DNA from: Nitrospirota bacterium
GTDB lineage: Bacteria; Nitrospirota; JACRHJ01
DNA: 64,000 bases
NCBI GenBank assembly: GCA_963733375.1
Contig: CAVTDB010000003.1
Coordinates: 224,001 to 288,000, forward strand
Direction of reading: 5' to 3'
Shown: positions 13,597 to 51,938 of the stretch, piece by piece
How the letters are laid out: every line of letters begins with the position of its first letter
Position numbering within the stretch: position 1 is the stretch's first letter
Notes under the pieces: generated by a model
What the model was told of the DNA's origin: nothing
The model's input: only the letters and a program-made list of their open reading frames with translations
The model's database searches: none
Made by a program: the position numbers and the translations under genes

Positions 13597-13706
13597 AAAA
13601 TTCTTACTTTTCTTTCAGGTGAAAGAAAAGTAACAAAAGAAAGCCGGATGTGAAAATAAGTTTAAAAGTTTTTGGTGTTACCTTTTTACAAAAAGGTAAC
13701 GGTTTT
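13597..13706 (+). repeat. REPIN-like double-hairpin element, copy 2
   Basis: TTACTTTTCTTTC/GAAAGAAAAGTAA plus AAAAGTTTTTGGT-GTTACCTTTTT/AAAAAGGTAAC-GGTTTT; overlaps the hemE stop. Confidence 0.9.
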
Positions 13707-19786: not shown

Positions 19787-19885
19787 AAAACCGTTCTTTT
19801 CTTTCACGGGAAAGAAAAGAACCAAAAGAAAGCGGGTCTAAACGGCCCAAAAGTTTTTGGCGCTACCTTTTTCCAAAAAGGTAGC
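19787..19885 (+). repeat. REPIN-like double-hairpin element, copy 4
   Basis: GTTCTTTTCTTTC/GAAAGAAAAGAAC plus TTTTTGGC-GCTACCTTTTT/AAAAAGGTAGC. Confidence 0.92.
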
Positions 19886-50730: not shown

Positions 50731-50866
50731 TCCGTATTCCCGAATGATTTAATCCTATTTGTCCGTCATTCCCGAGATGATTTACCTGTCCAGAGCGATA
50801 GCGAAGACAGAATGATTTAATCGGGAATCCAGGGTTTGATTTAAATTCCCGGATTCCCGCTTTCGT
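50731..50866. repeat. CGTC-type REP cluster with a 36-bp insertion (50775-50810)
   Basis: CGTCATTCCCG[36 bp]AATGATTTAATCGGGAATCCAG, plus a partial upstream copy and a truncated inverted partner GGATTCCCGCTTTCG. Confidence 0.75.
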
Positions 50867-50951
50867 CCGAGTTTGCTGTCGGGGGGAGCATTCTCTCCGA
50901 AAAATTATTATTCACAATTTCGCTTTAAGCCGCGTGAGTTTTATTTTACGT

Positions 50952-51749
50952 TCAAGATAATTTTTCTCCGAGAACGCTCCCCCCTCCCTCTTGCCTCTTC
51001 CTTTGCCGCTCGTCGCGCATATCTTTTCGCCGGTCCCAGGCGGACGGGTCTTCCGAGGCGGTAAGCGCCTTCCCCACCACAATTATTTTGAAGGCGTCCT
51101 CGTCCGCGAACCACTCCGGGTCAACGTCCTTTGCAAGCCTCTCGATTGTGGTATTTATAATCCCCTCGCCCGGCAGGGAAATCCGCGAGACTATCGCGAC
51201 CGGCGTATCGGAGTTATATCCTTCCAGCAGCTCGTATGTCAACTCTTCCGGCCTTTTGTTATTCATGAAGAGCACCATCGTTGCCTGGTGCCTGGAGAGC
51301 GCCCCGATAGTATCGGGACTGCCCTCTACGGTCTTTGGGGATGTTGCGATGACGGAATGGGCTGCGCCGGAGATGACGAACGTCCTTTTAAGCGCCGCCG
51401 AGGCCGCGTTAAGAACGCCGACGCCCGGGATTACTTCCGCGTCCGGGTAACGCGCGATTATGGACTGCACGGGCGAGAAAATGGCCAGGTCTCCGGGCAC
51501 TAAAAATACCGCGTCTTGCCCCTTCGCCAGCACGGAATCGATCTTCTCTGTCAGCTCCTTAAAATGGAAATCGAACGGGTCGTAATATTCCTTGCCTTCA
51601 AGCAGCGCGGCATAAGAGTCCTTGAAATGTCCCGGCGCGAACACGAGCGAGGCATTTTTCAATACCTCCATCCCGCGCAAAGTCAGAAGCTCCGGGTCCC
51701 CCGGCCCCCCGCCCACGAACCACAGCTTGCCGCATATGCTGTCAGACAT
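50952..51749 (-). CDS. cbiF: precorrin-4/cobalt-precorrin-4 C11-methyltransferase-like tetrapyrrole methylase
   Basis: FVGGGPGDPELLTLRG, GD..IFS, VIPGV and HQATMVLF..TPVAIV.R.S.P.E. Confidence 0.7.
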   Translation of the reverse strand: MSDSICGKLWFVGGGPGDPELLTLRGMEVLKNASLVFAPGHFKDSYAALLEGKEYYDPFDFHFKELTEKIDSVLAKGQDAVFLVPGDLAIFSPVQSIIARYPDAEVIPGVGVLNAASAALKRTFVISGAAHSVIATSPKTVEGSPDTIGALSRHQATMVLFMNNKRPEELTYELLEGYNSDTPVAIVSRISLPGEGIINTTIERLAKDVDPEWFADEDAFKIIVVGKALTASEDPSAWDRRKDMRDERQRKRQEGGGSVLGEKLS

Positions 51750-51783
51750 TAAAATTTTCCTCGATTTTTATTTCCTTAAAGCA

Positions 51784-51883
51784 CGTCATTCCCGCGCACG
51801 CGGGGAAAGATTTACCTGTCCAGAGCGAAACGGTTTACCTGTCCAGAGCGGAAGCGAAGACAGATAGCGAAGACAGAATCCAG
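51784..51883. repeat. CGTC-type REP with two nested 36-bp insertions
   Basis: CGTCATTCCCGCGCACGCGGG[72 bp, one 36-bp unit inside another]AATCCAG. Confidence 0.85.
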
Positions 51884-51938
51884 CGACTTTAAAAATAGGG
51901 GATGTGTCCCTAATTTTTCTAATTTCTAAATTTTCTTG

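Follow-up and report, generated by a model that had tools for sequence, protein, structure and literature searches.

What is a 36-bp unit that sits inside larger palindromic repeats and, in one place, inside another copy of itself? The question is raised by a 64,000-nucleotide stretch of a Nitrospirota genome (G000:C3:224001-288000, hereafter the window), the genome, G000, being a MAG of 2.39 Mb in 26 contigs that is 81% complete. The original prediction described the unit as an extremely small mobile parasite of other palindromic repeats. Our comparisons with two other species of the same genus (G001 and G002, MAGs 97% and 94% complete, the latter assembled in 8 contigs) and with one genome of a neighboring genus (G009) lead us to hold with confidence that the 36-bp unit is a real mobile micro-element with the insertion rules set out below. 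The element is recently active and non-autonomous.

The window contains one single copy, hereafter copy 1, and one nested pair, each within a palindromic repeat, as well as two palindromes of another type whose insertion sites are empty (Table 1). The inner copy of the pair enters the outer one after its 23rd base, between two blocks of fixed sequence, with a G before it and an A after it, and all three window junctions read G|A, as had been predicted. Deletion of the inner copy, computed from the window, restores the 30-bp core of copy 1, as also predicted, with 30 of 30 positions identical, and the claim that deletion of both nested units restores the host is borne out by a product that differs by at most three mismatches from three other CGTC-tagged REP copies in the genome. 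A pattern search of the window finds the 30-bp core twice and the 17-nt left half three times (0 mismatches), counts that were equaled in none of 100 shuffles. The assertion that the unit measures exactly 36 bp is right for the window copies and for 62 of the 76 unique copies that we tabulated, and too strict for the other 14, which have a spacer of 0 or 1 nt instead of 2.

Table 1. Copies of the 36-bp element, host palindromes and empty sites in the window (positions counted from its first nucleotide)
Feature	Position	Strand	Details
Single 36-bp copy (copy 1; AGATGATTTACCTGTCCAGAGCGATAGCGAAGACAG)	50775..50810	+	AGATGA leader, AT spacer; same sequence as five further G000 copies
Host palindrome of copy 1	50764..50836	+	CGTC-tagged REP variant with long loop; element at the 5' arm/loop junction
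Nested pair	51805..51876	+	Outer copy = 51805-51827 + 51864-51876; GAAAGA leader, AT spacer
Inner copy of the nested pair	51828..51863	+	AAACGG leader, GA spacer
Host of the nested pair	51785..51885	+	CGTC-tagged REP with 8-bp stem; insertion in the 3' arm
Empty REP-A palindrome	19793..19822	-	Site between 19805 and 19804; G001 orthologue (L020) filled
Empty REP-A palindrome	13604..13634	-	Site between 13616 and 13615; orthologues filled in G001 (L019) and G002 (L032)

REPs are defined, in the available part of the source text, as palindromes that end in a GTAG or CGTC tag and have a stem of at least 8 bp around a short loop (PMC3733652), and the host of the nested pair is a REP in this sense. 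As far as the available text of these papers goes, GTAG- and CGTC-tagged superfamilies are distinguished (PMC3733652, PMC3116915), and the CGTC-tagged repeats have no associated transposase and occur also inside genes (PMC3733652). The genes that flank the window copies are ordinary, namely those of an RNA uracil-5 methyltransferase, a tetrapyrrole methylase and a radical-SAM/BATS protein. In the orthologous spacers of G002 the whole host REPs are missing, including the REP of the nested pair together with its insert, so that these spacers provide no clean empty site for the window's own copies. At a permissive threshold, Rfam returned one chance-level match in the window region, to an animal long non-coding RNA family (E = 0.3, far below the gathering score), and in four congener loci it returned tRNA only.

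The genome-wide search suggested along with the original prediction places the three window copies in a family of 37 nhmmer matches (E<1e-5) at 31 loci of G000, to which a few decayed copies can be added. The genome holds 38 left halves (17 nt, at most two mismatches), and a right half adjoins each of them. The 36-bp layout consists of an 11-nt variable leader, a 12-nt near-invariant block, a free 2-nt spacer and an 11-nt near-invariant block, and the two blocks are almost without variation across the three species. Variation is mostly found at positions 1-11 and in the spacer; in the left half, 34 of 41 variants fall in 5 of the 17 positions, a pattern that is not an ascertainment effect since the search tolerates mismatches anywhere in that half. 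The two invariant blocks resemble sites of protein recognition. Pairing of their outer 5 nt can give a 5-bp stem with a 15-nt loop, a DNA hairpin of -3.1 kcal/mol (z = -2.5), and because this hairpin is invariant the structure of its weak stem is beyond the reach of covariation.

The leader deserves separate attention, as its first six bases had been thought to be carried along from a previous insertion site. This idea does not survive the comparison of copies. A loose consensus describes the six bases (A, A/G, A, T/C/A, G, A/G); the last of them is mostly A, in contrast to the G that closes the left flanks, and they are linked to the spacer, AGATGA going with AT and AAACGG with AA. Consensus and linkage together indicate that the leader is an inherited, subfamily-specific part of the element and not a flank acquired at an earlier site. 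By inspection, leaders bear no likeness to left flanks and no consistent likeness to right flanks, donor flanks or target complements.

Besides the window pair, G000 has a second nested pair on contig C17 and tandem pairs on C10 (two) and C16, while on C3 and C25 there are nested forms that have partly collapsed; the other nested pairs share the anatomy of the window's pair. Nesting thus has independent support, from C17, from the Illumina-type assembly of G001, from a metagenome contig (L141) and from a Logan contig, and tandem forms are present in the 8-contig assembly of G002. The units of a tandem dimer have rare core variants in common and different leaders, a combination for which neither simple slippage nor simple reinsertion suffices to account; the congeners have monomers at those sites. 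In run X1, both junctions of copy 1 are covered by mismatch-free Logan contigs, and the left-left junction of the nested pair is covered too. Among the Logan contigs of four soil/peat runs, none extends across the whole nested pair with both unique flanks, the uncovered parts not being counted as evidence. One Logan contig of run X3 skips exactly 36 nt of copy 1, its shorter side measuring only 20 nt.

The junctions of the 62 canonical copies follow a simple rule. The base before the element is G in 53 and the first base of the element is A in 55, while on the 3' side A occupies position +1 in all 62, position +2 in 55 and position +3 in 51, and G occupies position +4 in 43. On the 5' side only position -1 is conserved, the 3' flank being the conserved side. 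As the element begins with A and ends with G, three junction registers are possible; a duplication of 0, 1 or 2 nt would look the same and nothing longer is compatible with the junctions. No duplication at all, duplication of a 2-nt 'GA' at the target and a crossover core of 2 nt all look alike. An analogy with the TTAC target of IS608 had also been drawn, and it is not supported, as TTAC lies inside the element and not at the target flank.

The commonest host, which we call REP-A, is a palindrome with a 13-14-bp stem. A regular expression for it gives 114 matches, 105 of them empty (30-34 bp) and nine filled (62-68 bp, 35-36 nt longer). The remaining hosts are CGTC-tagged REPs, the element itself and unique sequence. 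REP-A is entered one base inside its 3' arm, and CGTC-tagged REPs receive the insert in the 3' arm, in the loop or at the edge of the loop. A copy of the element that serves as target is entered between its two fixed blocks, which gives rise to nested pairs; the junctions made by the element are targets as well, which gives rise to tandem pairs. A third arm of the repeat is found upstream in 28 of the 32 copies hosted by REP-A. Twenty of the 76 unique copies sit outside repeats, and their locations include two genes for proteins, regions of signal peptides and of ribosome binding, and the leader of a tRNA. Such targets are no better folded than random G|AA sites, which rules out a hairpin requirement. 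The portrait of a parasite of other palindromic repeats is accordingly right in part: precise insertion into REPs and into the element itself, without visible duplication, stands, but confinement to repeats does not. G000 contains 6,743 GAAAG sites, and by our reading of the listed copies 19 of its 31 loci are in REPs; the excess of REPs probably owes much to survival where insertion is harmless. Insertions that survive are concentrated in harmless places, namely the loops of REPs, spacers between genes, 5' leaders and hydrophilic linkers in proteins.

Empty and filled alleles can be compared between the species of the genus, and this comparison, which the original prediction had proposed between strains, speaks directly for mobility. 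We mapped the flanks of 30 congener copies onto G000. At eight loci (L002, L011, L012, L014, L017, L020, L025 and L028) the site exists in G000 without the element, the flank matches being 0-6 nt apart, and at five further loci (L013, L018, L019, L021 and L022) an empty REP-A is visible, which makes 13 orthologous sites filled in a congener and empty here. Two of G000's empty sites fall within the window. Seven loci, corresponding to six G000 sites, are filled in G000 and congener alike; the rest comprise three loci in rearranged spacers (L005, L015 and L027), one (L023) whose REP-A is arranged differently in G000, and six that are unplaced. At locus L008, G001 has a nested pair and G000 a single copy, so that polymorphism extends to a nested insertion. 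Between orthologous copies a few bases have changed (L026 versus C1, L006 versus C8), while one identical sequence is shared by six copies at separate loci of G000, from which it follows that identity reflects recent spread and not conservation. Donor-like copies persist, with identical copies at many loci.

Two insertions interrupt housekeeping genes and remain readable. In the rqcH/NFACT gene of G000 the 36 bp lie between the NFACT_N and NFACT-R domains and add the residues KRITCPERQRRQ; among seven aligned genomes the insert is present in G000 only, the six other family genomes being without it. In pyrF of G001 the insert follows the conserved TPGIRP motif and adds KSLTCPEPQRRQ, and the G000 orthologue is without it. 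Both inserts are species-specific, in frame and 12 codons long. The four coding inserts that we examined share one reading frame and have AAAAGA, AAAAGC or AAACGT as leaders. In this frame the leaders AGATGA and AAATGA would produce a TGA stop, and read-through needs a TGA-free leader. Part of the association between leader and target described below is thus attributable to selection.

Leader type tracks target type more widely. The AGATGA leader is present at 17 of 32 REP-A sites versus 1 of 41 other sites, the copies not being independent of one another. All five full nested inner copies (two in G000, one in G001, one on a metagenome contig and one collapsed remnant) have AAACG(G/A), a sixth copy of the nested class (L149) has GAAATG, and several second units of tandem pairs begin with AAACG(G/A/C). 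The leader could help to choose the target, or it could be rewritten upon insertion; a search for a pairing rule between leader and target found none.

How might so short a sequence move? Thirty-six base pairs cannot encode a protein, and the element must therefore be moved in trans. As a duplex it is too short to circularize or to hold a synaptic complex, and the lack of a long parent and of a duplication of the DDE type likewise favors a single-stranded route. The explanation that we consider likely as a whole is that of a lineage-restricted, non-autonomous 36-bp micro-transposon, with a single-strand route as the likeliest way of transfer. In detail, and more tentatively, a single-stranded 36-nt copy may be cleaved at either boundary, behind the G, and then joined to a G|A site elsewhere. 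The mover would be a strand transferase that acts in trans and recognizes the sequence of the two invariant blocks, and this candidate enzyme would not be a recognizable member of the usual families. Several observations weigh against this explanation. An enzyme was not found in the searches described next, the tandem dimers are not accounted for by simple reinsertion, the hairpin is weak, and the orientation of the element shows no bias relative to local GC skew (15 versus 16 of 31 loci, on draft contigs with noisy skew), although transposition of the IS608 type would predict one.

Searches for the enzyme were made with profiles of the known families. The Y1_Tnp profile (PF01797) matched in none of four genomes (G000, G001, G002 and G009; MAGs 81-97% complete), with a control search positive in 6 of 14 reference genomes, and the IS110 DEDD domain was likewise absent from these four. 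RVT_1, TnpB, DDE_Tnp_1 and Cas1 gave no match in the three genus genomes; nor did Y2_Tnp, but its control search matched nowhere either. Among the same three genomes, the Resolvase domain of serine recombinases occurs in G000 only, and the rve domain has weak matches in all three; rve transposases produce target duplications. With the three MAGs 81, 97 and 94% complete, a multicopy or plasmid-borne enzyme gene could be missing from them.

The alternative that fares best is the one named in the original prediction, a Y1 (HUH) transposase of the IS200/IS605 or RAYT type that would move the element as a single-stranded hairpin, cutting 3' of a short motif. Several features suit it: target duplication does not exceed 2 nt, cleavage would occur after G at the left flank and the right end alike, many targets lie in palindrome loops, and the small size is suited to a single-stranded circle. 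IS608 inserts 3' of a tetranucleotide without duplication and has its guide just 5' of its hairpin, which also counts in favor of this alternative. The element further resembles IS200/IS605 members (IS608, ISDra2) and their miniatures in having one orientation and in making a single-stranded intermediate plausible. However, neither the Y1 profile nor the usual partner of the enzyme, TnpB, was found in the genomes searched, the proposal standing unsupported in MAGs that are incomplete; there is one weak 5-bp stem instead of two subterminal hairpins; the left flank is conserved at its last base only, where IS200/IS605 elements need a 4-5-nt target 5' of the left end; and leader-target complementarity was not seen. 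A lagging-strand bias, which is shown by IS200/IS605 elements according to the available part of the source (PMC6006769), was not found here either. A derivative of IS200/IS605 is not supported by these criteria (Y1 absent in four genomes, one weak stem, no strand bias), and we regard the Y1 alternative as unlikely.

A more adventurous form of the single-strand reading can be set beside it. The element would be the substrate of an undescribed strand transferase, distinct from Y1/Y2 HUH, DDE, IS110, serine and tyrosine enzymes and from reverse transcriptase, that moves 36-nt single strands and uses the 11-nt leader as a target-selecting guide. This would be a long shot. If the guide reading were true, it would explain why leader type tracks target type, and if the undescribed transferase were real, the same machinery might also spread the transposase-less CGTC-type REPs.

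It is also conceivable that a larger insertion sequence is missing from the drafts and that the 36-bp units are its solo ends in joined form (23 + 13 bp), nesting then being a new insertion into the old joint. The two-block anatomy, with a free spacer exactly at the position of nested insertion, would fit, as would the frequent loss of multicopy insertion sequences from MAG assemblies and the location of several copies at contig ends. Yet no long form exists among the copies seen, a right half lying beside every left half in 38 cases in G000, 15 extra congener matches and 20 further cases. The 8-contig assembly of G002 still has short forms only, viral contigs and plasmids are without matches, and each of the dozens of sites with an identical joint would have required its own exact deletion by an enzyme. 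We therefore hold this explanation to be quite improbable.

Still less credible is a history without transposition, in which one old insertion into a REP was spread by ectopic gene conversion and slippage gave the tandem and nested forms. The same insert position in 32 REP-A copies, the same orientation to the third arm in 28 of them and the rare variants shared by the units of tandem dimers would accord with it. It is contradicted by the insertions at unique sites, 20 of 76 copies being in sequence without REP homology, rqcH and pyrF included. Moreover, the loops beside the insert differ among filled REP-A copies, so that conversion tracts would have to end exactly at the insert, and the left-left-right-right order of nested pairs is impossible by single slippage. 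Gene conversion could survive only as a secondary process within REP-A.

The least credible of these proposals, that a small RNA copy is reverse-transcribed at a nick, with a T-run of the target priming on the A-rich end of the RNA, can point to the A at +1 in 62 of 62 copies and to the variable 5' junction region, both reminiscent of target-primed reverse transcription, but RVT_1 is absent from the three genus genomes, no master RNA gene was found (Rfam giving only a chance-level match in the region), and copy length is very uniform, with 5' truncations absent. The solo-end, gene-conversion and reverse-transcription explanations are thus each contradicted by at least one direct observation.

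Two other identities were considered. A MITE of a DDE transposon is ruled out by ends that are not inverted repeats and by a junction ambiguity of at most 2 nt. A CRISPR-type repeat or Cas1 product was also rejected, Cas1 being found in none of three genomes; a crude scan of G000 for repeat-spacer arrays yielded none made from the element and one unrelated 16-mer present three times on contig C3.

Among known systems, the closest published analogue of the 36-bp micro-transposon is given by the small dispersed repeats of heterocystous cyanobacteria (SDR4-6, especially SDR5), which are likewise very small, non-coding, lineage-restricted and exactly inserted into another palindromic repeat. The SDR families were reportedly described by Elhai et al. 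2008 (Genome Res 18:1484), who are said to have found SDRs nested in each other as well, and SDR sizes are said to be about 21-27 nt. SDR5 (21 nt) sits exactly between the third and fourth base of the HIP1 palindrome, and the available portions of these papers report SDRs from Nostocaceae only and give their mechanism and function as unknown (PMC4390886 for the site; PMC5861425, PMC13756078 for both statements). Compared with the SDRs by description and not by sequence, our element differs in its 36 nt, in its phylum and in its asymmetry, a variable leader being followed by two constant blocks. It targets a loosely defined G|AAA(G), in contrast to the single fixed octamer of SDR5, and in-frame inserts in housekeeping genes are documented for it, which sets it apart from the SDRs.

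The resemblance to REP, BIME and REPIN sequences is more general, all being short dispersed non-coding repeats of 20-40 bp of which some are intragenic. Unlike REPs, the element has a stem of only 5 bp with a 15-nt loop, no GTAG or CGTC tag and a fixed asymmetric sequence, it inserts into REPs, and a RAYT was not found. In lying in frame in protein genes and being read through as extra residues, it is comparable to the Rickettsia palindromic elements (RPEs) and to intragenic REPs. RPEs are about 100-150 bp long and strongly palindromic, unlike the present element with its 12 codons and weak palindrome. Intragenic REP inserts are often located in DNA repair genes or at protein N-termini, in the available text of the source (PMC3733652).

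Our literature searches, which covered the papers in part, turned up no description of the 36-bp element, and it cannot on that account be called unpublished. The kind of phenomenon is not unprecedented; what the family gives is an unusually complete and testable set of insertion products. Mobile repeats of less than 40 nt are barely documented and the question of their mechanism has been open since 2008. The present family is an unusually clean system for it: its three species differ in their insertion sets, empty and filled sites form exact pairs, the junction rule is simple, the products include nested and tandem forms, and two blocks of the element are fixed. The rqcH and pyrF inserts show what proteins tolerate. 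For annotation, such inserts matter in that proteins acquire spurious 'indels' of 12 residues and assemblies are broken where the repeats lie. If the enzyme were found, it would serve as a compact tool for delivering a defined 36-nt cargo to short target motifs.

The element has a narrow distribution. A pattern search of 41 relatives identified as carriers the two congener species (21 and 8 matches) and one neighboring-genus genome (1 match), with none for the reversed control, and a looser left-half pattern gave 30 matches in G001, 15 in G002 and 1 in G009. In a sample of the phylum with 401 genomes from 162 genera, four genomes match and 397 do not, the reversed control pattern again giving 0. 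A 16-mer scan of 185,579 species genomes recovered at least 20 true elements among the matches listed, all in the two congener assemblies; 87 of the 107 matches listed are left halves only, from unrelated taxa and without a right half, and are due to chance. The element is absent from the viral contig and plasmid collections that we searched. Sequencing runs with this DNA comprise 16 DNA runs, all with small shares, and no RNA runs, and are not informative on expression. A metagenome collection contributed 13 loci of the element, including the nested pair on contig L141. In the four soil/peat runs, summed contig depth over the element is 34-159, against mostly less than 10 over neighboring unique sequence and up to about 26 at another nearby repeat, and this high depth indicates that the family is abundant in those communities.

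REP-A, the palindromic repeat that most commonly hosts the 36-bp element, is the most abundant repeat of the source genome (G000; 114 regex hits). It forms a palindrome with a stem of 13-14 bp, one arm being T/C-rich and the other A/G-rich, and usually belongs to a ~110-bp composite in which a second hairpin and a third arm accompany it. The presence of REP-A itself varies from species to species. A separate repeat, also ~110 bp long, occurs at least 15 times in G002 and several times in G001, the two other species of the genus, and one copy adjoins a cluster of the 36-bp element at the end of contig C25.

The element copy found 1-2 nt upstream of the tRNA-Leu(tag) gene, which is encoded on the opposite strand, has the same sequence in all three species. 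Because of this identity, the copy must belong to the leader or promoter region of the tRNA gene. On contig C10, a small membrane-protein gene is flanked on either side by a tandem pair of the element, the two pairs directly following the stop codons of two successive genes; in G002, each of these positions holds a single copy.

Two protein-coding genes carry species-specific in-frame inserts of the element, rqcH in G000 and pyrF in G001. The G002 orthologue of rqcH was matched in two frames, with the break exactly at the G000 insertion site, where the A-run is one A longer in G002; this extra A is probably a homopolymer error of long-read assembly. The pyrF reading frame has 168 codons in G000 versus 253 in G001, its early end in G000 being due to either a frameshift or a fault of the assembly.

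Among the matches listed, the left 16-mer of the element also has chance matches in coding sequences of many phyla (loci L036, L043, L065, L076 and others), some of which encode an LPVQSG-type radical-SAM motif. Such matches are a pitfall for scans with short patterns.

On contig C3, ~27 kb before the start of the window, two long rve-domain reading frames cluster with a resolvase gene, together probably forming a transposon or island. A domain search of the three genomes detected the resolvase in G000 only.

Coordinates of the repeats, genes and clusters discussed
Feature	Location	Remarks
Element copy at tRNA-Leu(tag)	G000 C25:122776-122811	outside window; L024, L030
Separate ~110-bp repeat	window 50873-50990	
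REP-A copies	window 19793-19822, 13604-13634	about 100 further places in G000
Two tandem element pairs	G000 C10:67475-67909	
rqcH orthologue	G002 C2:174591-176265	L169, L177
pyrF reading frame	G000 C13:11224-11730	L165
Resolvase and rve-domain frames	G000 C3:186119-196855	~27 kb upstream of window
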